IMG/VR virus record: IMGVR_UViG_2880389630_000006
DNA from: a virus
Lineage: Duplodnaviria > Heunggongvirae > Uroviricota > Caudoviricetes
Reading direction: 5' to 3' (one strand)
DNA length: 41,015 nucleotides
Shown: positions 1,266 through 25,229 of the stretch, piece after piece
Numbering within the stretch: the stretch's first letter is position 1
Layout: each line of letters starts with the position of its first letter
Notes under the pieces: generated by a model
Database searches by the model: none
What the model was told of the DNA's origin: nothing
Seen by the model: the letters and a program-made list of their open reading frames with translations, nothing else
Translations under genes and position numbers: made by a program

Positions 1266-1763
1266 TCAGTGCCACGATTTTTGCTTCTTCAGTGAATCGT
1301 ATTGCTGCTCGCAGAATTCCCCTGCGATACGATACTTTTCAGCCTCAGCTGCTGTTGCGTTGTAAACTCGGTTGCTTTCTTCAAGCATGTCGGCGAGCAC
1401 ACCGATGACCTTGCTGGCTGGCGTGCCAGGGGGGAAAGATCCGGTATAGTGTTCGGCGAGCCGCCTGGTTTTGTCAAGCTCGGCGCGCATGCTGTCAGCA
1501 GCGGAATTAGCATACTCAGCATCAGCACGCGCCGCATCGATACGGGATTGTGCTTCACGTTCAATTTGTGTTTTCTCCTGCTCACGCTGTGACCTTAACT
1601 TATCATCAGCCTGTTTCTGATCTTCCTTCGCCTGAGCATACCCGGCATCGTACTGGCGGCTGCCATGCACATTCCAGGCAACAACTCCTGATATGACCAG
1701 AACAGCAAGCATCGCCATGACAACCAACTGTTTCCGGTATGCTTTTGCGAATGCCCAGATCAT
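1266..1763 (-). CDS. Rz-like i-spanin (lysis)
   Basis: N-terminal TM helix then long charged coiled-coil region; start overlaps endolysin stop (ATGA); last gene of the lysis cassette; contains an embedded +1-frame lipoprotein ORF. Confidence 0.65.
1289..1537 (-). CDS. Rz1-like o-spanin lipoprotein embedded in Rz
   Basis: ATG at 1537 gives [17 protein letters not shown] (lipobox LTAC) followed by a Pro-rich short periplasmic segment, wholly inside the Rz gene in another frame. Classic Rz/Rz1 architecture. Confidence 0.5.
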   Translation of the reverse strand: MRRVLMLSMLIPLLTACAPSLTKPGGSPNTIPDLSPLARQPARSSVCSPTCLKKATEFTTQQQLRLKSIVSQGNSASSNTIH

Positions 1764-2389
1764 ACCGCCAGCACCTTACTGGCAGTGATGTACCGCACGC
1801 GCCGGTCGTCGATGCCATTCCTGCCACCATTGATAATCAGAGTTACACGTGCAATATCGCCGGTATACTTCATGCAACCTTTGCTGGAGAAGAACCACGC
1901 CGCGCTACGAGCCGCGTATTCGTCCTGCGCCAACAGTTCAGGATTCTCCAGCAGGTCCACTTTCAGGCCGTTTCCGCAATCACGATAGTTATTCAAACCG
2001 GTAATCTGGATAAGTCCGCGGCCACGGTAATTCCAGCCATCACCAGAGGCATTGTTCCCCATGCGTTTGCTGTACACCAGATTGGCAATCGCACGCTGGC
2101 GCTCAGGTGGCAATGGTGGCTCGCCTGCACGACGACCCAATGCGTTAGCCTGTCCCTGAGTAAGACGACCGGCACGAACGAAGTTAGCCAGTCCGGTGAC
2201 GCTGTAATTGAAATTCTCCTGCAACCTGGTGAAGCCACCAGACTCATGCCCGACCTGAGCAATAAACATTGCCTGATCTTCGGGTTTTCTGATACCAAAC
2301 TCTTTCATCGCAGAAGTTATATGCGAGAACCAGCGTGCGGCCAGAGCCTCGCTAATACCAGCAGCTCGCTGGAATTGTTTAATCTCCAT
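1760..2389 (-). CDS. Endolysin, glycoside hydrolase family 19 (chitinase-like) type
   Basis: Internal ATG at 2389 ([11 protein letters not shown]...) preceded by GAGG; motifs [12 protein letters not shown] and [13 protein letters not shown] typical of GH19 phage endolysins. The ORF-track N-terminal extension is rejected. Confidence 0.85.
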
Positions 2390-2687
2390 GTTTAGACCTC
2401 GATGTTTTGAAAATCTGAACAACGTTACCGCGTGTTTTAATAACCGCGGCAAGCATGACAGCGTTGATAATGACCTCAGATAAATCCACAGCCATTGGCG
2501 TACGTAACCAGATTGCATAGGCGACACGAACAGGAATACTGGCCGCAGCAACAATAAGGAAATAAGCAAGCCACCCTCCCCATCTTCGATGTTGAGAGCC
2601 GTTACGCCGGAATGTGACAACGCGAATTGCTATGCCAGTACAAATAATTGCATTGGTGATAAGCAAAACAAGCTCATTAGTTACCAT
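2379..2687 (-). CDS. Holin/antiholin-like small membrane protein
   Basis: 102 aa, 3 predicted TM helices, good SD (gggag), immediately upstream of and overlapping the endolysin start. Confidence 0.5.
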
Positions 2688-3078
2688 CGCCTTTTCTCCC
2701 AGGAATTAACTGGCGTGGATTATCAGAACGGTGATAGAGCCATATACCAATTCGCACTGCGACAATTGCTGACACGAATGCGCCAGCAGAGAAAACAATC
2801 CCTTTCTCGAAAGAGTCCTGCGTGATGGTAGGTATCATGCTGGCTATTCCGATAAGAATTGATGTTGTTGGTTTGTAAAAGAGAAGACCACAAAGAAAGC
2901 TGAGTATCGACAAGAGTACACGACGACGAACAGGATACTCTACAGCAGAGGTAACAAATATTACCGCACCAGCCAGAGCACCGAGAGCCACCTCTGGCGG
3001 AACGCCGTAGACGACAGAGGCCAGCGCACCCAAGCTTAACCCTTGATTCAGTGAATCCGCCGTAACCGTGCCATTCAT
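2677..3078 (-). CDS. Holin-like membrane protein
   Basis: About 133 aa from ATG at 3078 (the track start at 3087 is GTG); several hydrophobic helices; first gene of the lysis cassette. Confidence 0.5.
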   Translation of the reverse strand: MNGTVTADSLNQGLSLGALASVVYGVPPEVALGALAGAVIFVTSAVEYPVRRRVLLSILSFLCGLLFYKPTTSILIGIASMIPTITQDSFEKGIVFSAGAFVSAIVAVRIGIWLYHRSDNPRQLIPGRKGDGN

Positions 3079-3175
3079 GGTAACCACCGTTTATTGTGCA
3101 TAAAAACCCCCTTAGAAGATGAGGTCCATCATACACAATAAACCATTTACGGATAATAATTACCTAAATTTGGTC

Positions 3176-5827
3176 TTATTTTGATTCCAATAGTTCGAGT
3201 CGCTCTTCAATACGATCGCATCGACGGCGCTGATATGCAGCCTCAAGCCAAGCGCACTGGTCAGGCCGTATACCCCATGAACTACCCGCTTTTTTAACCA
3301 GCCTCTGTTCTCCGGTGTCATATTCGACGGTGACCAACTCACCAGACGTATCGGTAATCTCTTTAGTCGCGATTACCGGCTCAAAAATATCATCCCACTC
3401 GTCATAGCAAAGAAGGCCAAATCTGGTTCCATCAATTCCGTGCGCCAAGAATACATCCCTTACCTGCTGAGCCATGACGCCAAAATGCCATCTGGCACCA
3501 TCGCCCTTCATGGATATAGCGTCGAGCCATCGATACGCCACAACAGAAATATCGCCCCAGGCATCAAGAATGCTGTCTCTATCAGAAGAAAGCATTTCAC
3601 TTAAATCTGATATTGCCTCGGGATTGGTTTTCAGCGTGGCATCTGATGAAACGGTTGGGGCATTTGCAAAGTAGGCGTCTTTAATACGAAACGATGCCTG
3701 ACCAAAATTATAGGTATTGTCAGCAAACGGGCGAAGACCTGTATCATAAAACCGCCAGCGTATGGTTCCTCCCAATGCTGTCGGGTCGCTGTTGCATGCA
3801 ATATCCACCGTGGTGGCAGACCTAAACACAGAAGAACTACCGCCCAATACCAAGCTATTTGCGCTAGCTGTAGCCTGCTGGTCAAGGACCAATATTTTCT
3901 GAGAGTTTGTAGTTGCACCGGCATATGATGATGCAGTGATGCGGTTTAATTGGTTTGTATCAGGATCTGCGTTTTGCTGAATGGTTAAGTTAGATGCCCA
4001 CTGTGCCGGTCGCTGGCGCACAAATACAAAGTCACCAGAAGGATTAGTTGCAACCAAATAACTAATGCCACTATCAGATGAATAATAGTTGACTATAAAA
4101 GTCTGATTATTCGCATTCAGTATTTCAACATATGTGCTGGAAGGGATTGCCACGCCAGATATATCAGCAATGCTGACAGTCCCTGTGTAAAAATTAAATG
4201 CCTTCTGACTCATCTCCTGCATATAGCGAAGAATTTCAGTCATGTTAGTGAACAACGTACCATCTACAGGGTTAACAATCCCCTTCGCACTACGGGGATA
4301 TACCCCAATGCTCGCGTGATCGATATCAAATCCGCGGTAAAGCCTGGATGCAGGTGTAAAATCGATAGCATCTTTATCAGTGGAGAAATCTTCGAAAATA
4401 ACCAAACCTGAATTGTAAGGTTCAGAGCCAGTTCTTTCCTGATGAATGTAAAGTGAATAAATGGATTTTCCATCCTGAGAAACACAAACGCCTTCATTTT
4501 CTATGCGAGTGACGTTCAATCCTGCGGCTTTCATTAAATCCATCATGGCCTGAGGATGAAGCATTGATTCAGTTCGCTTTGTACCGTCAGGGTTAAAAAC
4601 TTTGCTGCCCTGATATTCGTTATATCCTGCGCTTCCTGCCCCATCAGCTATGAAGCCGCCATAGCCGCAGACAAAGTAGTTATCACCTACCGCAATACCC
4701 TGACGCTTGTTGAAATAAGGCGCATAAGGTGAGGTGCTTTTAGTTACATACCCAACATCATGTAACGGCAGCGTTATAGTTGACAGGCGATTGAAACCAC
4801 TGTCGAACACTGCAAGTACAGTTCTTGTGATTTTCTGTCCTACTTCTGGCGCATTCTGCTCAACGAGCCATATACCTCTTCTGTAGCTGAACTGGTTGAA
4901 TAATCCAACATCATGGTTTTGTACAAGAGGCAGATTGCTTCCGTATAATGCCCCCTCCATATTAAATTCACGCAGTATTCCGTTTGTGTGACCAACAAAC
5001 ATTTTTTTGGGGCCATAGTCTGACGTAACCACGATTCCTTCAGCAGCGAAGCCTGGGCCGCCAGCCTGAACATAGAAATAACCTTGATAAATACCAGATA
5101 TGTTAAATACTGCGACGACATTATTCGTCTGTTTAGGCTCAAATGGATAAGTGATGTATATCAAATCTTCGCTAACGCAGAATCCTTGAGGATACATATA
5201 AGTTGCTGACGGGTTAGCAGCCATAATCGCATCATATTCAGGAAAAAGAAGCGGCATCGTAGCTACAATCTTTCTTTGGTGATTTGTAAAAATATCGTTT
5301 TTAGCGCTGTTAGGTGTAGGCGTTACACCTCCAGTAAAAAGATCATCAACATAACCTTTATTGACAGCATCGTTTCTGTCAGTGGCATTTGCTAGATTTG
5401 ATATCTTATTATTTTTTGCATCATAATAGTTAGCCAGAATGCTTGGTTTTATAAGTGCTAACCTCATCCATGAAAAACACTTTTGAATAAGCATTGTCAG
5501 TTTATCGAACGCGTCTTCATGTACCTCAGCGAAGAACTTACCCTGATTACGCAAATCAGTATCCTGCGTAACCGGGAGCTCTCGTGATATAGAAATATGA
5601 TAACCGTTAGCCAACGCCTTCGACAGAATTACATTACCGCCATTATATCCTCCAGCATTGGTTACTGTGTAGTCAGTATCCAGAACCAATTCTGTTACGT
5701 TCCCGTTCAGGTCAGACACCTGAACAACCAGGTCGGATTTTTTGAAAATACGGAAGGTATACGGAAATGATGTCGTAGCTCCGTTACCGGTGTATTCGTT
5801 GTGGTCAACTTCGGTTGAGACCGTCAT
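3176..5827 (-). CDS. Tailspike / tail fibre with C-terminal intramolecular chaperone (peptidase S74-like) domain
   Basis: 883 aa. C-terminus (GDISVVAYRWLDAISMKGDGARWHFGVMAQQVRDVFLAHGIDGTRFGLLCYDEWDD) matches the auto-cleaving chaperone domain of endosialidase/tail-fibre proteins. Central domain of unknown specificity. Confidence 0.8.
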   Translation of the reverse strand: MTVSTEVDHNEYTGNGATTSFPYTFRIFKKSDLVVQVSDLNGNVTELVLDTDYTVTNAGGYNGGNVILSKALANGYHISISRELPVTQDTDLRNQGKFFAEVHEDAFDKLTMLIQKCFSWMRLALIKPSILANYYDAKNNKISNLANATDRNDAVNKGYVDDLFTGGVTPTPNSAKNDIFTNHQRKIVATMPLLFPEYDAIMAANPSATYMYPQGFCVSEDLIYITYPFEPKQTNNVVAVFNISGIYQGYFYVQAGGPGFAAEGIVVTSDYGPKKMFVGHTNGILREFNMEGALYGSNLPLVQNHDVGLFNQFSYRRGIWLVEQNAPEVGQKITRTVLAVFDSGFNRLSTITLPLHDVGYVTKSTSPYAPYFNKRQGIAVGDNYFVCGYGGFIADGAGSAGYNEYQGSKVFNPDGTKRTESMLHPQAMMDLMKAAGLNVTRIENEGVCVSQDGKSIYSLYIHQERTGSEPYNSGLVIFEDFSTDKDAIDFTPASRLYRGFDIDHASIGVYPRSAKGIVNPVDGTLFTNMTEILRYMQEMSQKAFNFYTGTVSIADISGVAIPSSTYVEILNANNQTFIVNYYSSDSGISYLVATNPSGDFVFVRQRPAQWASNLTIQQNADPDTNQLNRITASSYAGATTNSQKILVLDQQATASANSLVLGGSSSVFRSATTVDIACNSDPTALGGTIRWRFYDTGLRPFADNTYNFGQASFRIKDAYFANAPTVSSDATLKTNPEAISDLSEMLSSDRDSILDAWGDISVVAYRWLDAISMKGDGARWHFGVMAQQVRDVFLAHGIDGTRFGLLCYDEWDDIFEPVIATKEITDTSGELVTVEYDTGEQRLVKKAGSSWGIRPDQCAWLEAAYQRRRCDRIEERLELLESK

Positions 5828-5930
5828 GTTAAATCTCCAGATAGTCGCAGCACCCGTTGCGCCGCATATCTGGTTATTCTATTACCTGGAAAACCACATA
5901 TGGATAGAAAGGCTGTAAATACGAATAGAT

Positions 5931-5947
5931 ATTACCTTTCAGGTAAT
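5931..5947. promoter_or_regulatory. 17-bp palindromic operator ATTACC-TTTCA-GGTAAT
   Basis: Perfect inverted repeat; same motif family recurs at the immunity region and other promoters (see findings). Confidence 0.55.
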
Positions 5948-5983
5948 TTGCAAAACGTGCTGGATAGCAAACAAATTATTTGC

Positions 5984-6003
5984 TACTGTATAAATATACA
6001 GTT
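5984..6003. promoter_or_regulatory. LexA (SOS) box
   Basis: TACTGTATAAATATACAGTT = CTGT-N8-ACAG with AT-rich centre, near-perfect match to the E. coli LexA consensus TACTGTATATATATACAGTA; lies 20 bp upstream of the ATG at 6023 and overlaps a TATAAA -10-like hexamer. Confidence 0.7.
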
Positions 6004-6022
6004 ATTGCATGGAGAAGATAAG

Positions 6023-6280
6023 ATGCAGCAGTATCACTATCCACTGGAAGACGGATTTACCGAAAGGATTCACACGCCGGGAGGCGTCAGGTCACTGGTG
6101 GAGGGATCGCACTTGATGAAATTACTCCGGGATCTCGATAAGGATGGATTTAATGTCGATGGCCCACTTGCCGAACTGACTGCACTGATTAACTACGTCA
6201 CCAGCTCACAGATGTCTATGCAGGATCTGCAAACACATCTCGACTATTGTGCCGAACAATTACGAAAACAAACCAGATAA
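6023..6280 (+). CDS. Small protein paralogous to the C-terminal domain of the downstream antirepressor; candidate LexA-controlled antirepressor
   Basis: 85 aa from ATG at 6023 with SD ggagaag; LLRDLDKDGFNVDGPLAELTALINYVTSSQMSMQDLQTHLDY aligns with LLNQLQDDGHDVSGAAAELTTMFCYIVGVSKCLRDIQTHAEY in the 6593-7279 protein. The longer track ORF from 5900 is rejected because it would run through the operator, promoter and LexA box. Confidence 0.6.
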   Translation: MQQYHYPLEDGFTERIHTPGGVRSLVEGSHLMKLLRDLDKDGFNVDGPLAELTALINYVTSSQMSMQDLQTHLDYCAEQLRKQTR

Positions 6281-6327: not shown

Positions 6328-6592
6328 TTTACATCGCACTCCTCTTGTGCCATAGTAATCAGGCACTGGCAAAATCCAGTGCCGGGATTGGCGTCCCGGG
6401 TTACTACAGAGGCACATATGCCGCATAAGCGGTTTTTTTATGTGTAAAGCGCACCTATTCTATGGTGGGCTGTGTGGGGGCACCGAAAGGTGCGCCGGGT
6501 CCTTTGTAGCCGGTTACGCCAACCCTGCACAGTTCACCACCAACCGATTGGCGTCGGTAGTGGTGATTAACCTAACTACAAAGGTGATCACT

Positions 6593-7279
6593 ATGACTGC
6601 TAACGTAACCCCATCTGTTTTTCATTTTGAATCAGAAGCAACCATTCGAGCCATTGTTATTGATGGAAATCCTTGGTTTGTTGCCAAAGACGTTATTAAA
6701 GCTCTTCAACTGACAAACCCCACTATGTCAATAAAATCTCTTGATGATGATGAAAGGGCTAAATTTAACTTAGGCCGTCAAGGCGAAACCAATATTATCA
6801 ACGAGTCAGGCCTCTACACACTGATCCTCCGCTGCCGCGACGCAGTGACACCAGGCACTATCCCCTACCGCTTTCGTAAATGGGTTACAGGTGAGGTTCT
6901 TCCTCAGATCCGCCGCACCGGAAGTTACATTAAAAACTCGCTCCCGCAGGAAGAACGCATAAAGATGGTTGCCGACCAGGTAGCCAACGCCACAGCATCA
7001 GCAGTGATGCAGGCAATGAAGATAGAGAACAAAACCTACAGCGCCCCACTGAAGCCCGGCTACCGCAGTCTGATTCATTCTCCGTCTGGTGTTCTCGGCC
7101 TGACGGAGAACTCACTGCTGATGAATCTGCTGAACCAGTTACAGGACGACGGGCACGACGTATCGGGTGCGGCGGCAGAGCTGACCACCATGTTTTGCTA
7201 CATCGTCGGTGTGAGCAAATGCCTGCGTGATATCCAGACGCACGCGGAGTACATCAACGACAAGGCAGGGTTCTTCTGA
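6593..7279 (+). CDS. Phage antirepressor, Bro-N domain family
   Basis: ATG at 6593 with SD aaggtga; N-terminus (IRAIVIDGNPWFVAKDVIKALQL...ESGLYTLILRCRDAVTPGTIPYRFRKWVTGEVLPQIRRTGSY) is Bro-N/antirepressor-like. Confidence 0.8.
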   Translation: MTANVTPSVFHFESEATIRAIVIDGNPWFVAKDVIKALQLTNPTMSIKSLDDDERAKFNLGRQGETNIINESGLYTLILRCRDAVTPGTIPYRFRKWVTGEVLPQIRRTGSYIKNSLPQEERIKMVADQVANATASAVMQAMKIENKTYSAPLKPGYRSLIHSPSGVLGLTENSLLMNLLNQLQDDGHDVSGAAAELTTMFCYIVGVSKCLRDIQTHAEYINDKAGFF

Positions 7280-7343
7280 CGAGCGGCGGCACAGGGATGT
7301 GCCTTTAAATAATTCTGTACAGATTGCAGGTGAATAGCTTACT

Positions 7344-7360
7344 ATTACCTCACGGGTGAT
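7344..7360. promoter_or_regulatory. Operator-like site ATTACC-TCACG-GGTGAT (one mismatch)
   Basis: Same motif family; right half GGTGAT equals the lambda operator half-site. Confidence 0.35.
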
Positions 7361-7447
7361 CCATAGCGATTAGGCACCGATACAGGAGGAGCCCACATGA
7401 GAAAATTTGACGAGTACGAAGGCGTTTAACATTCGGATAGTTTAATG

Positions 7448-7471
7448 ACGGGGCCATTAGGCCCCGTTTTC
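7448..7471 (+). terminator. Rho-independent terminator / possible attenuator
   Basis: Stem acggggcc/ggccccgt with loop atta, then TTTT; sits between a 10-codon micro-ORF (7397-7429, strong AGGAGG SD) and the GTG start of the 7489 gene. Confidence 0.7.
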
Positions 7472-7488
7472 ATGTCTGGAGACAGTTT

Positions 7489-8028
7489 GTGTTAAGTGAA
7501 GAAATGCAATTTGCCATGGCTGTGGCTCAAATCGTAAGTGCAGTCGCGGTTTCGCTTGGCTTGTTCATAGCTATCGCTACTATTATTTATAATGTAAATA
7601 CAGCGAGAAAAGTACACACTTCAGTATTCCTTGGTGAAAGCAGGTTTGATGTAGATTATAAGAAAGGCCTATCTACTATGCGCCGCATTCACGAATCGAA
7701 CAAATCATTCCGCTCTTATATGTATCCAAGCAATGGGCAGGCTGATCTTACGGATGAAGAAAAGACAGAGAAGAGAGAAATAATTTACTGTCTAGGTTTC
7801 TACGAACGCATGGCTGTGAGCGTGAAGCGGAAAACTTATGATGAGACCATGATTAAGGAAGTATTTTACAGCTCCGTTGTAAATAACTATCAGATTGCGC
7901 TACCTCTTATACAAGCCATTAGAGAAAAAGAAAACATAAACACATATTTTAAAGAATATGAATGGTTGGCCACACGATGGAAGGATTGCCCATTGAAGGA
8001 TAAATCCCCGTGGTACAAGTTTTGGTAA
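7489..8028 (+). CDS. Membrane-anchored protein of unknown function (AT-rich moron; candidate superinfection-exclusion or abortive-infection protein)
   Basis: 179 aa; GTG start with SD ggag 8 nt upstream (alternative ATG at 7504); single N-terminal TM helix (AMAVAQIVSAVAVSLGLFIAIATIIY) then a soluble domain; markedly AT-rich relative to its neighbours; opposite strand to the structural operon. Confidence 0.6.
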   Translation: MLSEEMQFAMAVAQIVSAVAVSLGLFIAIATIIYNVNTARKVHTSVFLGESRFDVDYKKGLSTMRRIHESNKSFRSYMYPSNGQADLTDEEKTEKREIIYCLGFYERMAVSVKRKTYDETMIKEVFYSSVVNNYQIALPLIQAIREKENINTYFKEYEWLATRWKDCPLKDKSPWYKFW

Positions 8029-8029
8029 G

Positions 8030-8052
8030 CCAGCGCTGCGGGCTTTTTTTTG
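8030..8052 (+). terminator. Probable intrinsic terminator after the membrane-protein gene
   Basis: GC-rich imperfect dyad (gccagcgctgcgggc) immediately followed by TTTTTTTT. Confidence 0.45.
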
Positions 8053-8123
8053 TGGACGAAACAAAAGTCAGTGCTACACTCATTGACGCCACATTGAGGT
8101 GGCTTATGGATGGAAATTTCACA

Positions 8124-8285
8124 ATGAAAAAAGCATTTGCTGCACTGTTCGTTTTGTTGTCTCTGGTAGCTTCAACTCAGGCCTTTGCCGGCCGTTGTCA
8201 GCACGACAGCGATACTGCCGCTGACGGCTCCCGCTGCGGTGGGCGTTCTGCGGATTCCCGCCCTGGCGGCGGTGGCATTCGTTAA
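8124..8285 (+). CDS. Possible small secreted Cys-containing peptide
   Basis: MKKAFAALFVLLSLVASTQAFA signal peptide then a 31-aa Gly/Arg/Asp-rich segment with 2 Cys; weak SD (alternative ATG at 8106). Speculative. Confidence 0.3.
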   Translation: MKKAFAALFVLLSLVASTQAFAGRCQHDSDTAADGSRCGGRSADSRPGGGGIR

Positions 8286-8308
8286 AAACAAGGCCGCGAA
8301 AGCGGCCT
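8282..8308 (-). terminator. Rho-independent terminator ending the minus-strand structural operon
   Basis: Perfect hairpin aggccgc-gaaa-gcggcct (8291-8308), followed on the minus strand by a T-run (plus-strand aaaaac at 8284-8289). Confidence 0.6.
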
Positions 8309-8320
8309 GTGACATGTCAC
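8309..8320. repeat. 12-bp perfect palindrome GTGACATGTCAC, copy 1 of 3 (function unknown)
   Basis: Exact sequence; lies between the lipoprotein stop codon and the terminator hairpin. Confidence 0.9.
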
Positions 8321-8323
8321 GAC

Positions 8324-8737
8324 TTATAAAGATGACTGATATTTTACAACTCTGTTCATGGCATCTTTTTTCACCGAGCTGATATCAGTTCTTATTTTGG
8401 CTTCGTCATTACTGCTTATCATGCTATTAATTTTTTGCACTGACATGCCGTTTCTTTCAGCCATTGCACATACAGCAGCATCGTATGAAGAACTCGCTGC
8501 GATGGATATCACCTTGTTACACTCAAACACAGCACCTTCAGCAATATCAGATGCCGATGAGGCTGGCTTGGTATAAGTCTTGACGTAGTGATCAATACAA
8601 CTATCCTTCGCCGTCTTGGCAAGAGAAAAATCCACTTTAACTTTGTCGCAATATGCCTTATCAACACCGTCATAAACATCATAGGATGTCGAGCAAGCGG
8701 ATATCAAAAATACCGATAACAGCAATAATTCCTTCAT
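8324..8737 (-). CDS. Lipoprotein, last gene of the structural operon (candidate receptor-masking or exclusion lipoprotein, or tail accessory protein)
   Basis: Lipobox LISAC after a signal peptide; SD aaggaac; 6 further Cys residues; immediately downstream of the 824-aa virion protein gene. Confidence 0.65.
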   Translation of the reverse strand: MKELLLLSVFLISACSTSYDVYDGVDKAYCDKVKVDFSLAKTAKDSCIDHYVKTYTKPASSASDIAEGAVFECNKVISIAASSSYDAAVCAMAERNGMSVQKINSMISSNDEAKIRTDISSVKKDAMNRVVKYQSSL

Positions 8738-8746
8738 TGTTGTTCC

Positions 8747-11221
8747 TTATTGCGGAGTGACATCCTGAGGTCGCCACCAGTATGTCTGGTTAAACTCTTT
8801 CTTCGAACGTTGCTCCATTTTACGCAAATAGCCTGGTGAAAAATACTCCTGCATCTGATTAAAGATCATGTGATCGAGAGCCGCCTTCAAGTACCAGAGA
8901 TTCGCACCAGGCATCAAACCTTTCCCAAGCTTAACCAGATCACCACCAGTCTGCTCATTCTTCCCTTCCACAGCATTTAACGGTATGCCCTGAGCAATCT
9001 TCACTACGTCATCAACCAGACCAGCTACCGGGCCAAGCATCGACGCTAGTGCGCCGCTCCCGTACCTGGTGTGGTCAGAGAAAAGAAAATCACCATACAA
9101 CCCTGCCCCACCACCTTTTAAAAATGCATTTATCCAGAATTTAACCATGTTGTCACCGGTCATTTCTTTTGGATTTCTCCCATTAATAAGATCAGTAATC
9201 TGCATGGAAAGAGCACCAAGCATGGTTGTGCTTGCTAAAAACGTTGCTATATATGCCGCACGCCCACCAGCAGACGGCATACCCATAGCGCGTGACCAGT
9301 GACGCATAACAACCGAGATAGGGAACGATTTAAACAGGAAAACACTTCTCGTTAATTCACCTTTCCATGTTCCACGCTGAAGACCAGACCCTACGAACAT
9401 CTGTTCACGTGCGCCCGGTGTAATAACAGCCATATCAACTTCTTCAGTTACGGCACCGAGCAGTTTACGCATTGCCTCAAATTTCACGCGTTCAGACTCA
9501 CCAAGATGTTTAACTGCTGAATCAGGGATACGCATAATGCTTTCCGGTGTCAGCATCGTATTATTACCGTTCCCCCAGTCCTCCTGTTGCGCCAGCTTCC
9601 ATACGCTCCAGTCTGTGTCAGTAATCCCTTTGCTTTTCAGGATACGAAAATCAGAGTCATCGAGGCTACGAAGGTCTGGTGTCCGTGACACTACTTCTCC
9701 CAGGCTTCCCATCATGGTTACGCCATAAGCGCGCTTGTGCGCATCTGACCATGCTGTAAGCCCACTGGCACGCATTACCGCCGTTGCCGCCCAACGAGAT
9801 ACTGACGGCCCCATATTATCCATCGCCCAGCGGTTAACGCTGCCAAGTAGAGATTCCATCGCCAGACCAGCGCGGCGCGCCCGCGCAAGTTCTGTACGGT
9901 TCGTTGGGTCCATAGCTTCAAGCTGGTTGCGGAATAACTGGTTCATTGGAAGGTTGGTCACCTTCGCAGACAGATACATGGTTCCAAGATCAGAGAACGA
10001 TGACAGCAACGCGGATCCGAGTCTGCTGGCAACCAGCCAGTTGCGGATATTGTCAGACCATCGCGCGATGTGCGGATTCGCTACAGGCTGTGTCTTTCCG
10101 GAAATAAAGTTGTACAGATTCTCTGTTTTGTTCGCCAGCCGCTCGACGCTACCGGTTTTACTCGGGTTAGCTGTTGCCGTTTCTGCCTTCACCTGATCAA
10201 GAAGGGAACGGAAAACATGATCGGGGTTTGGACCATATGTTTCCACCAAAGCAATATCTTTACTGATACCTTCCAGGTGACCGACCATGATTTCCCATAG
10301 AGAGCGATCGCCATAAAGTTGCTGATATTGCAGATAGGAATCTGCATCTTTGAAATGTATCTGTCGTGATGCATTACCACGGTTAGCACGTGCGCCGGAA
10401 ATTCGCATTCCGGTATCAGTAAGCTTATTCAGCCCACCAGTAGCGATCGTGTTATAAGCCTCTCCAAGAAATGCAGACAACTCGGCATCGTTCATCAGTT
10501 GTCCATCGGCTCGGGTATAATATTTGCGATCCAGCTTACCTATAACATCGCTAACCCACTTATCCTTTGATACCGCCCCAACCTTTTCCATAGAATGATG
10601 TTGAGGGATCCCCCAGTTTTCGAGATAGCCAATGTCCCCACCAGCATCATTAAACCGGCGGCGCAGCAGCTCTGTAACTTCTCTCCACGCCTTAGCACCT
10701 TTTCTTGCTTTAGCATTGCCAGTATTTTGCCCCCGCATTTCATATACCAGGTCACGTACGCCCGCTTCATCTTCAAACAGGCCAAAAAAGCGAGGATCAA
10801 CTGCTTCAAATGCCTCCTGCAATTGACTCAATGCATAATCACGAGTGGCTTTTGTTCTGGATTCAACAGAGAGGAAATTCGATTTACCGTCTGCATTAAA
10901 AGCAATAGTACGGTTAAGAGCGCCAAGTTTCCCATCAGCCCCTTGATAGCTATTGATAAATTTATCCAATCTCTGACGTGCGGCTATAGTGAGGGCCACA
11001 CGACGTTTCTTTAATGCCGCTTCTCGCTGTAATTCTTCAGATGCCAATTGTGCTGCACGATACAACCGTTCTGATTCGGAAAGTTGTCGCCACGACATAG
11101 GGTCATCACGAGCAATGGAGCGCATATTTCGATAAATGCGGTCTTCAATGTTCTGTATTTCTCGCGCCGTTAACGTGCGCTGCGCCGCCTGCTGGACCGC
11201 TTGTATACATTCCTGTCTCAT
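8747..11221 (-). CDS. Large virion internal / ejection protein (T7 gp16-like position)
   Basis: 824 aa, no TM or enzymatic motif recognised; assigned by position in the structural operon. Confidence 0.55.
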   Translation of the reverse strand: MRQECIQAVQQAAQRTLTAREIQNIEDRIYRNMRSIARDDPMSWRQLSESERLYRAAQLASEELQREAALKKRRVALTIAARQRLDKFINSYQGADGKLGALNRTIAFNADGKSNFLSVESRTKATRDYALSQLQEAFEAVDPRFFGLFEDEAGVRDLVYEMRGQNTGNAKARKGAKAWREVTELLRRRFNDAGGDIGYLENWGIPQHHSMEKVGAVSKDKWVSDVIGKLDRKYYTRADGQLMNDAELSAFLGEAYNTIATGGLNKLTDTGMRISGARANRGNASRQIHFKDADSYLQYQQLYGDRSLWEIMVGHLEGISKDIALVETYGPNPDHVFRSLLDQVKAETATANPSKTGSVERLANKTENLYNFISGKTQPVANPHIARWSDNIRNWLVASRLGSALLSSFSDLGTMYLSAKVTNLPMNQLFRNQLEAMDPTNRTELARARRAGLAMESLLGSVNRWAMDNMGPSVSRWAATAVMRASGLTAWSDAHKRAYGVTMMGSLGEVVSRTPDLRSLDDSDFRILKSKGITDTDWSVWKLAQQEDWGNGNNTMLTPESIMRIPDSAVKHLGESERVKFEAMRKLLGAVTEEVDMAVITPGAREQMFVGSGLQRGTWKGELTRSVFLFKSFPISVVMRHWSRAMGMPSAGGRAAYIATFLASTTMLGALSMQITDLINGRNPKEMTGDNMVKFWINAFLKGGGAGLYGDFLFSDHTRYGSGALASMLGPVAGLVDDVVKIAQGIPLNAVEGKNEQTGGDLVKLGKGLMPGANLWYLKAALDHMIFNQMQEYFSPGYLRKMEQRSKKEFNQTYWWRPQDVTPQ

Positions 11222-11226
11222 TTAAT

Positions 11227-13029
11227 TTAACCTCTCAAGAAACACGCCACAGCGACATCAAACAGGCTGGAATCCTGTATTGCCTGCTCACTTTCCCTGT
11301 TCGCTTCATCCAGCACTTCACGCGCGCTGCGCGATTGTGGATTACCATCATCATCCAGCACGGTGATTATCATGTCAGGTGATTCAAGCAGCGAGTCTTC
11401 AGCTATGCGCAGATCAATATCTCCTGCCTGATCCGCCATCATTTTTTGTTCTGCATGTTGCAATATTTTATCAGGCTCAAAAGGAGCTACTTCGTCTGGC
11501 GTCCTGACCTCTGCTGTTTTATAGAATGAAACAGCCTGAGCATTAAGTTCACTTTCTGCCTGCTGTCTCCGAGCCAGTTCTGCTCGAGCTTCAAAAAACT
11601 GACCGCCAGGCTCATGCGGTGCCAACGCGTTACGGGAAAATTCCAGGCGTTCTTGTGCCTGCCGGATTCGTTGTTCAATATCGCGAATTCTGGCCTGTTT
11701 ATCTGATCGAGCACGAGACAAAGCTTTACCGCTACCAGTTGGCTCTTCTGCAAGAATTTGTGCACGCTGTTCAGTGAGATTTTCAATAATTCGTTGGCTA
11801 TTAGCGATTTCAGACTGGTAAACCTGTCTATCTCCACGCGGCAAAAGCTGCGCGGCCTGTTCTTCAAGCAACCGATTTTCTATAGCGCGCGCCGTTACTC
11901 CATCATCTACAGATGACAGAGCCTCATTAACTGCCTGAGACAGCAGACTCTTGCGCCCAGGAATTTCACTGAAAGATGCAGACTCAACAATGCTGGCAAC
12001 GTCTACAGGTCTCCCCTGGCTAACATCAGACATAGCTTTTCGCAGAGCCTGAATGTGAGAATTGCGCGAAAGCACGTTGATCGGCACGCCGGGCGCAATA
12101 TCAATTTCAGCATGATGAGCGGCATTCGCCGCCAGTGCAGCATCAACATCAACTGGTGAAAAATTTGGTGCGCTTGTAGACTCGCCGCGAGAGTTAATAA
12201 ATCTGCCGACTCCACCAAAAGCCACCCCAAGAACAGCATCAATAGCAATTGCCTGTCGATCCAACACATCATACTGGTTAGCCATTTCGCTATAGCCACC
12301 ATCACGAAGCGTTTTTGCAGTAAGCCCGCGCTGTGCCATACCGAACGCAATATTTGTACCTGCGGCATAGGCAATATCTGGCGTTGCACGTACTGCTGTT
12401 GCCGCGGCGCGTCGCACTGAACTTTCACCCGTCCGCGCAAGCTGAGCCGCCACACCTTCCGCCAGCGCACCACCAGCACGTAACCCGAGACTCATAGGGA
12501 TCAGTGTTCCGGCACCAGCAGTAATACCCTGCACTAATCCCGCTTCCTGCGCCGTCCTGAAATCAACCCCCTGCGCTGTCAGTCGTTCAAACTCAGAAAA
12601 ACCCTGTAGCGAAGTTACCGCCGCAGCACCTCCGACCGGACCACCGAGCGTTGTACCGACAACAGCCTGCCCGCCCATATCGAACAACCCATAAAGAACC
12701 TGCCCTGCGGTTCCGGTTGTCGCGGCATCAGGCGTCAGCCGCTTAACCTGCTGCTCTGCTAGTTTTCTCTGCTCGGCAATGTATGAAACTGAAGTGTCAT
12801 TGAGCGAGGTGTTTTCGTTAACAAACTGAGCAATCGGGGATACGATTTTATCCATCCCTGCCCATAGCAACTGATCTGGCTTTGCCACCAGCCCGGAGTA
12901 CAAACCAGACAATGCCGCTCCTACAGCATTGTCGAAAAAACCAACATCGCTGTTAAAGCCAACTGGATTTGATGCTGCTTCGTCAAGCTGCTGATTCTGG
13001 TTTACTGGATTAAGGCCAAAGTAACTCAT
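11227..13029 (-). CDS. Virion internal protein, Gly/Ala-rich
   Basis: 600 aa, Ala/Gly-rich central region and coiled-coil C-terminal half; positional assignment. Confidence 0.55.
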   Translation of the reverse strand: MSYFGLNPVNQNQQLDEAASNPVGFNSDVGFFDNAVGAALSGLYSGLVAKPDQLLWAGMDKIVSPIAQFVNENTSLNDTSVSYIAEQRKLAEQQVKRLTPDAATTGTAGQVLYGLFDMGGQAVVGTTLGGPVGGAAAVTSLQGFSEFERLTAQGVDFRTAQEAGLVQGITAGAGTLIPMSLGLRAGGALAEGVAAQLARTGESSVRRAAATAVRATPDIAYAAGTNIAFGMAQRGLTAKTLRDGGYSEMANQYDVLDRQAIAIDAVLGVAFGGVGRFINSRGESTSAPNFSPVDVDAALAANAAHHAEIDIAPGVPINVLSRNSHIQALRKAMSDVSQGRPVDVASIVESASFSEIPGRKSLLSQAVNEALSSVDDGVTARAIENRLLEEQAAQLLPRGDRQVYQSEIANSQRIIENLTEQRAQILAEEPTGSGKALSRARSDKQARIRDIEQRIRQAQERLEFSRNALAPHEPGGQFFEARAELARRQQAESELNAQAVSFYKTAEVRTPDEVAPFEPDKILQHAEQKMMADQAGDIDLRIAEDSLLESPDMIITVLDDDGNPQSRSAREVLDEANRESEQAIQDSSLFDVAVACFLRG

Positions 13030-15539
13030 TGCGGAATATCTCCGGAGAATCTCTGACGCTTCTGTGTCAGATCAAGAACAACGGGAGAACCATCATCTTT
13101 TAGCAGATAACCAGTACCAAGTTTCACCAGGTACTGACTATCGCCGTAACTTTGCAAACCATACTGACCAGGCGGTGTTTTTATCCCTGTGCCAACAACT
13201 TGTTCACTCCAAGCCTGATTAACCTGCTTATCGAATTGCTCTGCAGACATTCCCCACGGCAAAAGAACATTCCCCATTCCGTTATAGTCATGCACGCCAC
13301 CTGTAGCTACGTTAACAGCCTGTTTCCAGATATCATTGTCAATTTCGCCTGATACCACGCCTTTTTTCGCCATCACACCAGCGTAATAGTCCTTTGCGAT
13401 CTCGTATGCCATTGATGCCCCCTGAGCATCACCAGCAAATGCATCCTTCACCATGTCAGAAAACTCAAGGCGAAGATCAGCATCTTTAGGCATCGGAATA
13501 CCTTTCGCGTCATCAGTACCTTTACGAGCCGCCGCGCCAGCAAGAATTGTCTGCGCAGCGGTTTCTGGAGACACGGAAACATCCGGATTAAACCAGTTTT
13601 TTTCTGCCAAAATACCACCTGGCTTATCCATCAGTATCCCGGCAACGGCAGCAGATGGAGCGTTGGCACTGATCTGCTGTAGTGCTGACATATACACCTG
13701 CCCACCACCAGTGCTCTGCCTGATGGTATCGAGATATGCTGCCTGTTGGGAAACGGGCGCATCACGAAAGAAAACACCGATCTGATTGGCCTCGTCTTTG
13801 GAAAAGAACGTCAGTGGAGTGCCATATGACTTAGCAAGGTCACTGACCTGAGCAGCACGCAAGGCAACGCTCTGTCCAAAGTTATCCTTATTGCTCATGT
13901 CGATAGGCTTTGCCTGTCCGGCGGCAAGAGAGAACTGCACAGGATCCGATTGCCGCTGCTTTATCACCTGATTTGCAGCCGAAACAACGTTGTCATAAAG
14001 AGCTGCGCGTGCCGCATACCCCTCCCCTGTCTCACCAGTATCCGGGCGTAATTGCTCAACATATGCTGTAATGCTGCTTGTCGGCATGTTGCGGAAAGAG
14101 CCTATATACTGTCCGGCGATCTGCGTATTCTTAAACTCGGTATATCGCAGGTTTCCTTCTCTGACTCCATAAGCTGCAATAAAATCAGCCTCACCAGGTG
14201 GGTTAGGAAATTCAACTCCACGCATATACGCAGCTGTTGCATCTCGAACCTGGCTGTCAATCATCGTTTTATATTCAGCCTGCTGCTGCCGACGCAGTTG
14301 ACCAGCCTGTCGCATAAAACTTGCCTGCGCCTCAGGAGATGCCGCATCGAATGCTGCATTACCGGTATAGCGTTTGGTGTTGGTTGGAATTGTTGATAAA
14401 CCAAGTGCTGCACTGACACCAGCAGTTAACTGCTGATCACTGTATGGCTGGCTACCGTTCTCATGATGGATAATGGCTGCACAAAGCGCCTTCAGGGTAT
14501 CAGGATTTGATGCATCGAGAGGCTCATCAGCAGAAACGCCAAGTTGTTCGCACACCGCTTTGATATACGACATTGTGTCATTTTTATCAGTGGGCGGTGC
14601 CCAGCGATTAATTATCTCGCTGACGGTATCAATACCCTGCCGCTGATACGACATCAGGTTCCGCCCTAATGCACGAATCCCGTGTTCAGGTGTTTCGAAT
14701 TTAGCAAATCGACCATCATCACCGGTCTGGCCTACCCACGGATTAGTTTTGCTGTATTCGAGATTTCCTGGGTTATTGTTGCGTATGCCACGGGCACGCT
14801 CGGAAGAGTCACTATCTGCTACAGCACGGCGAGCTCCAGCAGCAGTATCACTTAACTCGCCATTACTTTGGATGAATGCGGTCGCATTGTTTGCCGACCA
14901 CTGGGACAATGCAGCATCAGCAACCTTCTCTTTAAACTCGATTTTCTTGGCCTGGATTTGCTCGTCACTCCAGCCATGTGCAATGCCGTAATCCTCAATT
15001 TGCTGGAAAGTTTGCTTATTAGCCAATACGTATGCGGCGTTGTCGCCATACAATGCTGCGGCATTTTTACCATTGTTCAGCAGCGTAGCCTGAAACTGGC
15101 CTTCTTCGTAGGCATTTATTTGCCCTATCTCGTGCCGCCCTGCCTGCGTAGTGAACTGAATGCGCTGCTGCTGCGCCTGCTGCATGAAAGCATTACGAGC
15201 CTGTTCATCCGGCAGCGACATAGCCAGTTGTTCGACCTGAGCATCAAACTGCTGCGTATACTCATGGCCTTTTCCAATAGCATTTTTCCCTTTCAGGTTA
15301 AGCAATCCTGTTTCAGGATTATTCAGCAGATCACTGCTTATCTGACTGAGGTTAAGAGATGCCTCCTGAGCCAGAGCGATATTGGCACGCTGTTTTGCCT
15401 GACCAAAAACATCAATTGCCTCTGTCCCTGCCCGAACAAAAGCATCACCAATACCTGGCTGAGAAAACGTCTGCAAGCCTGCTGACTGAACTCCACGGCT
15501 CTGAACCTGACGGCCGGATACTGTTGGTACGACTGGCAT
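13026..15539 (-). CDS. Large virion internal / ejection protein (T7 gp15-like position)
   Basis: ATG at 15539 (MPVVPTVSG...) preceded by GGAGG and overlapping the upstream stop (TAATG); the track's 25-residue N-terminal extension is rejected. Confidence 0.55.
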   Translation of the reverse strand: MPVVPTVSGRQVQSRGVQSAGLQTFSQPGIGDAFVRAGTEAIDVFGQAKQRANIALAQEASLNLSQISSDLLNNPETGLLNLKGKNAIGKGHEYTQQFDAQVEQLAMSLPDEQARNAFMQQAQQQRIQFTTQAGRHEIGQINAYEEGQFQATLLNNGKNAAALYGDNAAYVLANKQTFQQIEDYGIAHGWSDEQIQAKKIEFKEKVADAALSQWSANNATAFIQSNGELSDTAAGARRAVADSDSSERARGIRNNNPGNLEYSKTNPWVGQTGDDGRFAKFETPEHGIRALGRNLMSYQRQGIDTVSEIINRWAPPTDKNDTMSYIKAVCEQLGVSADEPLDASNPDTLKALCAAIIHHENGSQPYSDQQLTAGVSAALGLSTIPTNTKRYTGNAAFDAASPEAQASFMRQAGQLRRQQQAEYKTMIDSQVRDATAAYMRGVEFPNPPGEADFIAAYGVREGNLRYTEFKNTQIAGQYIGSFRNMPTSSITAYVEQLRPDTGETGEGYAARAALYDNVVSAANQVIKQRQSDPVQFSLAAGQAKPIDMSNKDNFGQSVALRAAQVSDLAKSYGTPLTFFSKDEANQIGVFFRDAPVSQQAAYLDTIRQSTGGGQVYMSALQQISANAPSAAVAGILMDKPGGILAEKNWFNPDVSVSPETAAQTILAGAAARKGTDDAKGIPMPKDADLRLEFSDMVKDAFAGDAQGASMAYEIAKDYYAGVMAKKGVVSGEIDNDIWKQAVNVATGGVHDYNGMGNVLLPWGMSAEQFDKQVNQAWSEQVVGTGIKTPPGQYGLQSYGDSQYLVKLGTGYLLKDDGSPVVLDLTQKRQRFSGDIPQ

Positions 15540-16084
15540 TATAATCCTCCGGGTAATCTGGTTCCTGCTGCTGCCCCGATTGGCGCAGGGGTGCTTTGAG
15601 TAAACGGACTCCACGTCCCACCAAACATCTGGTACGCACCGTATGCCTTCAGAGGCGCAGTGAGCAATGTTGTTGCTGCTCCTACATTCCCCTGTTTACG
15701 GGCTGAACTGGCTTCTGCTTTATAGTTGGCAGCCTGAACCTGATAACCGTAAGCCTCGCGTTGCGCGTTATTCACCGTCGTCAGAGAATCAAGAGCGCCA
15801 AACTGGGCAGTGTCGCCAAATATATCCAGCGCGTTACCTGTAGATAAATCAGCGCCGGTAGCCCCCATTGTCGCCGCCTGTGTACCAAGCCGCTGTCGGG
15901 TCTCTCTGCGCCGTTGCTCAGCTTCAGCGTTACCTCTGTTTATTGCATCATTTGCCTGAGCAGTGGCTATATCTGCGTTCGCTTCTGCAACCTTCGAGGC
16001 ATACTTTCCCTGTTGGTACTGGGTGTATGCCTGAATGCCACTCATGGCGAGCATTGCGCCACCAGCAATAACCGGATCGCACAT
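15539..16084 (-). CDS. Small virion internal protein (T7 gp14-like position)
   Basis: 181 aa, Ala/Gln-rich; translationally coupled to its neighbours. Confidence 0.5.
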   Translation of the reverse strand: MCDPVIAGGAMLAMSGIQAYTQYQQGKYASKVAEANADIATAQANDAINRGNAEAEQRRRETRQRLGTQAATMGATGADLSTGNALDIFGDTAQFGALDSLTTVNNAQREAYGYQVQAANYKAEASSARKQGNVGAATTLLTAPLKAYGAYQMFGGTWSPFTQSTPAPIGAAAGTRLPGGL

Positions 16085-25152: not shown

Positions 25153-25229
25153 GTGGCATTAGCTCAGTCGGACAGAGCAACCGCCTTCTAAGCGGTTGGT
25201 CGCAGGTTCGAATCCTGCATGCCACGCCA
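25153..25229 (+). tRNA. tRNA-Arg (anticodon UCU)
   Basis: Hand-folded cloverleaf: 7-bp acceptor stem GTGGCAT/ATGCCAC, D-arm gctc-agtcggaca-gagc, anticodon stem accgc/gcggt with loop CT-TCT-AA, T-arm gcagg-TTCGAAT-cctgc, discriminator G plus encoded CCA. Resembles but is not identical to enterobacterial argU. Confidence 0.85.

Follow-up and report, generated by a model that had tools for sequence, protein, structure and literature searches.

The envelope exclusion proteins known from phages are few: Llp, Cor, SieA, Imm and Sp. Sp, the Spackle protein of phage T4, blocks entry by inhibiting the tail lysozyme. SieA of phage P22 blocks DNA injection, and the mutations that escape it lie in the ejection proteins gp16 and gp20 (PMC10883804). 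On the P22 genome, 23 nt separate gene 16 from sieA, which lies on the opposite strand, and mnt/arc/ant, the tailspike gene and gtrABC come next. Here we analyse a 41,015-nucleotide stretch of tailed-phage DNA (IMG/VR record IMGVR_UViG_2880389630_000006; the window in what follows), in which an operon for ejection proteins ends in a gene for a 137-amino-acid (aa) lipoprotein. Our best reading, to which we give a probability of roughly 40%, is that this lipoprotein acts in superinfection exclusion at the envelope. New here are the cassette nature of the slot that holds the gene, a rare family of helical lipoproteins with two C-X16-C cysteine pairs (twin CX16C), the recurrence of this family after divergent genes for gp17-like ejection proteins, and its occurrence in defence islands.

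The lipoprotein gene and its slot

The gene is the last one on the minus strand after those for a 600-aa and an 824-aa internal/ejection protein, the second of which is gp17-like, and it is followed directly by a terminator. The initial annotation was therefore right to place it last in the structural operon. The features of the gene and its immediate surroundings are:

8324..8737, minus strand: lipoprotein gene, 137 codons plus TAA (open reading frame (ORF) list and translation; full-length PHROG 8691 match; 17 homologous clusters of 137 aa)
8693..8737, minus strand: predicted lipoprotein signal peptide ending in the lipobox L-I-S-A-C15 (Cys15 codon 8693-8695; residue +2 is Ser)
8327..8692, minus strand: mature domain, predicted helical, with twin CX16C (Cys30 8648-8650, Cys47 8597-8599, Cys73 8519-8521, Cys90 8468-8470)
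8744..8749, minus strand: TAAGGA, in which the gp17-like stop codon (8747-8749) overlaps the Shine-Dalgarno (SD) sequence AAGGA that serves whatever cassette occupies the slot
8291..8308: bidirectional intrinsic terminator hairpin, which ends both the ejection-protein operon and the convergent plus-strand genes (terminator scan, RNA fold)
8322..8742: replaceable cassette of 421 bp, differing between prophages that are otherwise 97-98% identical in its flanks (blastn breakpoints, slot census)

The ATG of the lipoprotein gene lies 9 nt past the TAA of the 824-aa gp17-like gene, and the SD sequence overlaps that stop codon (sequence TAAGGAACAACAATG). We propose, from this arrangement of signals, that the lipoprotein is made from the mRNA of the ejection-protein operon as its last cistron, translation starting from the SD sequence embedded in the gp17-like stop. 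The initial annotation called the gene translationally coupled, which the 9-nt spacing and the shared SD sequence suggest but do not confirm. The terminator consists of a 7-bp GC-rich hairpin followed by the U-tract UUGUUUUU, with a folding energy of -17.7 kcal/mol (z = -3.75 relative to shuffled sequences). The dN/dS ratio of the gene was 0.056 relative to a 94%-identical Citrobacter-type copy and 0.095 relative to an 82%-identical copy. Judged from these substitution patterns, the ORF is a genuine coding gene under strong purifying selection. The 137-aa lipoprotein ORF that had been annotated is thus borne out by the ORF list, the lipobox and dN/dS.

The GC content of the lipoprotein cassette is 39.6%, compared to 48.8% for the upstream gp17-like gene and 49.1% for the window. 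In blastn against IMG/VR loci, homology breaks off at 8321/8322 and 8742/8743-8744, and the flanks on either side are 97-98% identical. These breakpoints hug the ORF, suggesting that the exchanged unit is the ORF and almost nothing more; the terminator belongs to the conserved flank and not to the cassette. For a census of the slot we took 80 IMG/VR loci that encode the C-terminal third of the gp17-like protein and read the ORF after its stop codon. Among the 78 informative loci the occupants were:

21/78 loci: the lipoprotein, two copies being shortened to 120 aa
34/78 loci: a 57-aa protein with two transmembrane (TM) segments, in some loci with an extra 118-aa multi-TM protein (Orf12 of phiv142-3)
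17/78 loci: a 46-aa two-TM protein (phiV10 gp21 type)
6/78 loci: a 41-aa single-TM protein

The two shortened copies are the first ORF of the slot in the IMG/VR loci L017 and L018 and suggest occasional decay. By hydropathy, all alternative occupants are membrane proteins, and in epsilon15 the slot holds gp18, a 64-aa two-TM protein, followed by a terminator. Every occupant of the slot is, on the evidence of its sequence, an envelope protein. The first ORF of every cassette starts 8 or 9 nt past the gp17-like stop, and this uniform spacing suggests that the same SD sequence serves all of them. The same terminator hairpin follows all four cassette types. Of 5,426 complete genomes of E. coli, 318 have a gp17-like gene of this type, and only 21 of these also have the lipoprotein.

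The gene has two marks of a moron as Hendrix and colleagues use the term, presence or absence between close relatives and an atypical base composition. Its exact replacement by unrelated proteins in close relatives suggests that the lipoprotein is not a core part of the virion and is dispensable for making virions. Comparison of these loci identifies the gene as an accessory, horizontally exchanged cassette. This agrees with the initial annotation, which preferred an accessory gene to a virion part: unrelated small membrane proteins occupy the slot in phiV10, epsilon15, phiv142-3 and most related prophages.

The lipoprotein family and its genomic settings

The lipoprotein begins with MKELLLLSVFLISA, after which the sequence continues CST. 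The layout MK-ELLLLSVF-LISA-C15 comprises the positively charged n-region, the hydrophobic core and the lipobox ([LVI][ASTVI][GAS]C) of bacterial lipoproteins. A lipobox was found in all eight relatives (LISAC, ALSGC, LIVGC, VISAC, ILFGC), its Cys being invariant at identities down to 26%, and one family member matched Pfam LPAM_1. Residue +2 is Ser or Thr in every member and Asp in none. Under the Lol-avoidance rule established for E. coli, Ser at this position predicts sorting to the outer membrane. Lipidation at Cys15 and an outer-membrane location are accordingly given here as predictions.

There are five cysteines, at residues 15, 30, 47, 73 and 90, hence four besides the one that would carry the lipid, and not the six additional ones counted before. 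Their spacing, C-X16-C, X24-25, C-X16-C, is fixed in all eight relatives, and M1, the lipobox Cys, D26, C30, C47, C73, C90 and S99 are invariant in the eight aligned sequences. The AlphaFold2 model is confident (pLDDT 86.5, pTM 0.71) and all-helical, with six predicted helices at residues 24-55, 62-72, 74-96, 100-106, 109-116 and 119-136. Since 30 + 90 equals 47 + 73, the four cysteines would line up in an antiparallel helical hairpin, giving disulfides 30-90 and 47-73. The pairing of Cys30 with Cys90 and of Cys47 with Cys73 is what residue register and model suggest. No 19-residue window reaches a Kyte-Doolittle value of 1.6 (maximum 1.53), and there is no TM segment beyond the signal peptide.

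The family is rare. The full-length match, PHROG 8691, is annotated as of unknown function. A word-indexed search of 5.8 billion proteins returned 17 homologous clusters, all of 137 aa and all from Enterobacteriaceae (E. coli, Enterobacter, Citrobacter, Cedecea), and an exhaustive profile search of 1.84 billion representatives gave only 7 matches at E <= 0.001. Four full-length distant relatives (44%, 27%, 26% and 26% identity; 137-142 aa) are lipoproteins too. By tblastn, the gene was found in none of 50,697 sequenced phage records. A scan of GTDB species genomes with the family alignment gave no match, and the same scan with a Providencia protein gave one locus (Providencia sp. PAZ2). Scans of Pfam, NCBIfam and PADLOC returned nothing above threshold, the only matches being chance ones to Linker_histone, Trans_coact and CC_3452. 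Against PDB sequences, a profile search turned up designed helical repeat proteins and nothing else, the predicted fold matched no PDB chain, and a literature search found no report on this lipoprotein.

The relatives were next compared for their neighbours. A Cedecea prophage copy (54% identity) comes right after a gp17-like gene of 848 aa, which has only 24% identity with its counterpart in the window. A metagenomic copy (26% identity) follows an 855-aa gp17-like gene (25% identity) and a gene for a 191-aa secreted protein, and the 44%-identical metagenomic copy follows a partial gp17-like gene (27% identity). Citrobacter-type prophages carry the lipoprotein in the same slot together with different tailspikes and a Wzy-type or acyltransferase conversion gene. 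This linkage to divergent gp17-like genes and varied tailspikes suggests that the link is old or repeatedly re-created, and independent of O-antigen specificity. The 191-aa secreted protein contains Cys and is encoded between the gp17-like gene and the lipoprotein homologue in a distant podophage (L092 7366-7941, L093 1133-1708), suggesting that two or more envelope proteins can share the slot.

The Providencia branch (27% identity) has other surroundings. There the gene is part of a conserved module of ~2.3 kb with an insertion sequence remnant, inside integrase/AlpA/DUF3987 islands whose variable cargo is DruE-like and UvrD-type helicases, GajB with a type I restriction enzyme, or a type III restriction-modification system with SIR2. 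In Providencia sp. PAZ2 (NZ_CP174123.1) the relative is carried by a lambdoid prophage, where it sits between the Q antiterminator and the holin, on the opposite strand. Defence-type morons surround it in that prophage (L102 4460-11058): AbiTii, a PD-T4-6/Stk2-like Ser/Thr kinase and an adjacent PP2C phosphatase. These contexts suggest that the family can act without an ejection operon, moves as a moron and accompanies anti-phage genes.

The prophage of the window is an epsilon15/phiV10-like (Uetakevirus) E. coli prophage, and the first two ORFs of the window are the chromosomal genes yfgH and yfgI. The annotation of E. coli UMNK88 shows the same arrangement adjoining yfgI, and megablast with positions 7300-9300 matched phiv142-3, HEMP4, ZX5, phiV10 and SPN1S. 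On the minus strand, the portal and capsid genes are followed by genes for a T7 gp14-family core protein, an 862-aa protein, the 600-aa gp16-like protein and the 824-aa gp17-like protein, and then by the lipoprotein ORF. A convergent plus-strand block comes next (a 126-aa ORF, a Bro-N antirepressor, a DUF4760 protein and a 53-aa secreted peptide), and past it, again on the minus strand, lie the tailspike gene and the lysis cassette. Statements on the composition of the epsilon15 virion rest on record annotations and general knowledge. The coordinates of these genes in the window are:

15539..16084, minus strand: T7 gp14-family core protein
13026-15614, minus strand: 862-aa ejection protein
11227..13029, minus strand: 600-aa gp16-like internal protein, same operon as the lipoprotein (PHROG 1145; synteny with phiV10 p19 / epsilon15 gp16)
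8747..11221, minus strand: 824-aa gp17-like virion/ejection protein, immediately upstream of the lipoprotein (PHROG 684 virion structural protein; homologue of phiV10 gp20 and epsilon15 gp17)
1266-3087: lysis cassette of two holin-family genes, endolysin and DUF2514 spanin, 5 kb from the lipoprotein gene

Several of these neighbours are mosaic or accessory themselves. The 862-aa ejection protein has only its first ~230 aa in common with the Cedecea homologue (49% identity), and it lacks the SLT transglycosylase domain that is present in that homologue and in a metagenomic relative; the partial match and the missing domain indicate domain replacement inside an ejection protein. The tailspike gene (3176-5827, minus strand) is a three-part mosaic: the N-terminal adaptor is of the epsilon15 type, the central region matches (E = 3e-24) a PHROG with the annotation glycerophosphoryl diester phosphodiesterase, and the C-terminus is a Peptidase_S74 intramolecular chaperone. 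Between the tailspike and holin genes there is no O-antigen conversion gene here, compared to oac in phiV10 and a wzy-like gene in epsilon15. The 126-aa ORF (5900-6280, plus strand) is a separate copy of the C-terminal domain of the Bro-N antirepressor (6440-7279, plus strand), with 42% identity over 74 aa, and both match PHROG 450. The DUF4760 gene (7489-8028, plus strand; 179 aa, 39.4% GC) encodes a membrane protein; it too is a low-GC accessory gene, and UMNK88 and phiv142-3 have other ORFs in its place. The gene for the 53-aa secreted peptide (8124-8285, plus strand; 58.8% GC) converges on the bidirectional terminator, and in most Uetakevirus prophages of E. coli it is part of the flank conserved to the left of the cassette. 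This peptide starts with MKKAFAALFVLLSLVASTQAFA, continues GRCQHDS and ends in GGGGIR; it has two Cys and matches PHROG 14503, a 'membrane associated protein' of the moron category. A tRNA-Arg gene (anticodon TCT; 25153-25229, plus strand) lies inside the prophage between the packaging and portal genes, as it also does in the annotation of the UMNK88 prophage.

Exclusion weighed against other explanations

If the lipoprotein acts in exclusion, it would leave the cytoplasm, receive its lipid at Cys15 and reach the inner leaflet of the outer membrane. About 120 aa, folded into a compact helical domain, would then face the periplasm, the antiparallel hairpin stapled by Cys30-Cys90 and Cys47-Cys73. 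From there it would stop incoming epsilon15-like phages after their tailspikes have bound and before their DNA has entered. The target could be the trans-envelope conduit formed by the ejected gp14- to gp17-like proteins, or an outer-membrane component that these require. The alternative small inner-membrane cassettes would be functional counterparts acting from the inner membrane, as P22 SieA does.

Points in favour of exclusion are the conserved envelope targeting, a slot that holds envelope proteins only, the moron-like GC content, the repeated linkage to ejection genes, the place of sieA in P22, the defence-gene company of the distant branch and the strong purifying selection. The initial annotation had also suggested superinfection exclusion, by receptor masking in the manner of T5 Llp or Cor-type proteins. 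Exclusion as such fits the position of P22 sieA and the defence-island and moron contexts of the distant branch; kinship with T5 Llp or Cor did not appear in sequence or fold. The analogy of position with P22, together with the same regional layout of ejection genes, slot, antirepressor region and tailspike, favours interference with DNA delivery, and receptor masking is not preferred over it. A wider version of this proposal, which we regard as rather unlikely, is that the slot is a modular 'exclusion cassette' site with a shared SD sequence and terminator. The lipoprotein would then represent a new outer-membrane-tethered, twin-CX16C class that intercepts the ejection conduit periplasmically, and the small membrane proteins would do likewise from the inner membrane.

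Several points weigh against exclusion. Conservation of the lipoprotein across genera is high, unlike what would be expected of an arms race with ejection proteins; the SieA types of P22 share under 30% identity with each other (PMC10883804). Sequence and fold searches found no similarity to a known exclusion protein, and no anti-phage defence model of PADLOC-DB was matched at E <= 0.1. All sources label the family members as hypothetical or 'lipoprotein', with no experimental datum. The Providencia copies do not adjoin ejection genes, so that linkage to gp17-like genes is not obligatory, and the defence-island evidence concerns only this 27%-identical relative. Expression is a further point. 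A consensus scan, which could miss weak promoters, found neither a promoter within the lipoprotein cassette nor a sigma70-like site on the minus strand in 8700-11300, the 2.5 kb upstream. Third-codon-position diversity across the 3' end of the gp17-like gene (62 distinct sequences), in which a dip was sought as a sign of an embedded promoter, gave a profile dominated by recombination mosaicism. With no promoter found in the cassette and no sigma70-like site upstream, the lipoprotein may be expressed here only in late lytic growth, which would poorly suit classical exclusion from the lysogen. The earlier statement that it is expressed from the prophage finds no support in the sequence.

The alternative that survives best, although we consider it unlikely, is a host-fitness lipoprotein of lysogenic conversion, similar to lambda Bor, which would confer resistance to serum, bile or antimicrobial peptides, or adhesion, and would not act on phages. 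The strong purifying selection and the conservation across genera would be expected of such a protein, as would its small size, its carriage by prophages and its atypical GC content, and the carriers include isolates from humans, poultry, pigs, calves and dogs. The PAZ2 relative lies in a lambdoid moron position, on the opposite strand and adjoining the lysis genes, as bor does in lambda. However, neither Lambda_Bor nor any other Pfam family was matched, the neighbours of the distant relatives are anti-phage systems rather than virulence genes, and the tiny membrane proteins that alternate with the lipoprotein in the slot are unlikely virulence factors. The recurrent place after ejection genes would also be left unexplained.

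Ranking behind this, and doubtful to us, is a function in late lytic growth. The lipoprotein would modify the envelope of the dying cell so that progeny spare their DNA from debris and vesicles, the second role proposed for T5 Llp, or it would tune lysis. The gene closes the late structural operon, shares the SD sequence and has a cassette in which no promoter was found, which is what such a function would predict, and the expression signals are the same for all cassette types. Envelope vesicles are moreover reported to inactivate O-antigen-specific podophages (PMC7541932). On the other side, a complete lysis cassette (two holin-family genes, endolysin and DUF2514 spanin) is present elsewhere, the Providencia relatives stand alone in defence islands with no late operon, and no ejection trigger in the outer membrane is known in this genus.

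We consider it improbable that the lipoprotein is an orphan periplasmic immunity protein against an exogenous envelope toxin, such as a type VI peptidoglycan hydrolase effector, a bacteriocin or a lysozyme. A small periplasmic lipoprotein, predicted to be stabilised by disulfides and moving between mobile elements and islands, would suit this role, and its N-terminus bears a faint, non-significant resemblance (G-x-DK-x-x-C-D/E) to T4 Spackle, a periplasmic lysozyme inhibitor. No effector gene adjoins it in any context, however, and the Spackle similarity stays under every threshold (10.9 bits compared to 27; hhalign 24%). In this prophage the ejection protein lacks the SLT domain that its Cedecea and metagenomic counterparts have.

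A virion component or assembly factor of the ejection apparatus, for which operon membership and the tight spacing to the gp17-like gene could be cited, is very unlikely and the least probable of these readings. Lipoproteins routed by Sec and Lol leave the cytoplasm, the site of virion assembly. The gene is missing from phiV10, epsilon15, phiv142-3 and ~93% of E. coli prophages of this type, no copy was found in 50,697 sequenced phage records, and relatives exist without any phage structural genes.

Should the lipoprotein indeed block phage entry, it would add a structurally new family (helical, disulfide-stapled and outer-membrane-anchored) to the envelope exclusion proteins listed at the outset, and it would open a way to study how epsilon15-like podophages get from O-antigen binding to DNA delivery, a step that is poorly understood. 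If exclusion is true, such cassettes would also influence the plating of therapeutic and typing phages on E. coli, Citrobacter and Enterobacter lysogens. The exchange of ORF for ORF under common expression signals offers a natural set of alternative envelope proteins for comparison. As an ordinary fitness moron, the gene would be of modest interest.

Comparison with known systems

In architecture alone, and as an analogy from general knowledge, the predicted hairpin resembles the twin-CX9C (CHCH) proteins of the mitochondrial intermembrane space, in which two antiparallel helices, each with a C-Xn-C pair, are joined by two disulfides in an oxidising compartment. The lipoprotein differs in having X16 instead of X9, in being a bacterial lipoprotein and in showing neither homology nor a fold match. 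A role as an o-spanin (Rz1-type) was rejected: the complete lysis cassette with its DUF2514 spanin lies elsewhere, at 1266-3087, and the corresponding place in epsilon15 has an annotated Rz/Rz1 pair.

Lambda Bor/Iss is likewise a small prophage lipoprotein moron, and the Providencia relative resembles it in lying on the opposite strand, close to lysis genes. The two differ in size and in their cysteines' pattern, and Pfam Lambda_Bor was not listed for any of the 8 members in scans at E <= 0.1 and E <= 10.

T4 Spackle is also small, helical, exported and periplasmic, but it is not a lipoprotein and does not have the twin CX16C pattern. Kinship was not significant: the Spackle family (PF25676) was hit by 2 of 8 members, at 10.9 bits and E = 0.72 compared to a cut-off of 27 bits, and hhalign gave a probability of 23.7% over 28 columns. 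This sub-threshold similarity covers the signal peptide and the G-x-DK-x-x-C-D/E motif and is not counted as evidence. Inhibition of the SLT domain of an ejection protein was considered as well and is weakened, the 862-aa protein of this prophage having no such domain.

Cor, of phi80, N15 and HK022-type lambdoid phages, is also an outer-membrane lipoprotein of prophages, encoded by an accessory gene after tail/host-specificity genes, and exclusion is its function. The lipoprotein here found no match in the phage collection and matched no PHROG annotated for exclusion. Cor acts on FhuA-dependent phages, whereas the carriers here are O-antigen-specific podophages with varied tailspikes.

T5 Llp is similarly a phage lipoprotein with a lipobox and intramolecular disulfide(s), its gene adjoins host-entry genes, and action from the periplasmic face of the outer membrane is proposed in both cases. 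The lipoprotein here is about twice the size and predicted to be all-helical. It gave no tblastn match in the phage records, shares no Pfam or PHROG family with Llp and matched no PDB chain in fold. Llp inactivates FhuA, the receptor of T5, whereas no protein receptor is known for epsilon15-like phages.

The closest counterpart in gene order is P22 SieA, whose gene likewise adjoins the last ejection-protein gene, with the antirepressor region and the tailspike gene beyond it. SieA blocks the delivery of DNA through the conduit of ejection proteins. The DUF4760 protein encoded nearby was considered as a relative of SieA and showed no similarity. SieA is a multi-spanning inner-membrane protein, transcribed from its own promoter on the opposite strand, whereas the lipoprotein has no such spans and no promoter was found in its cassette. 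The alternative cassettes of the slot, which encode small inner-membrane proteins, resemble SieA in this respect.

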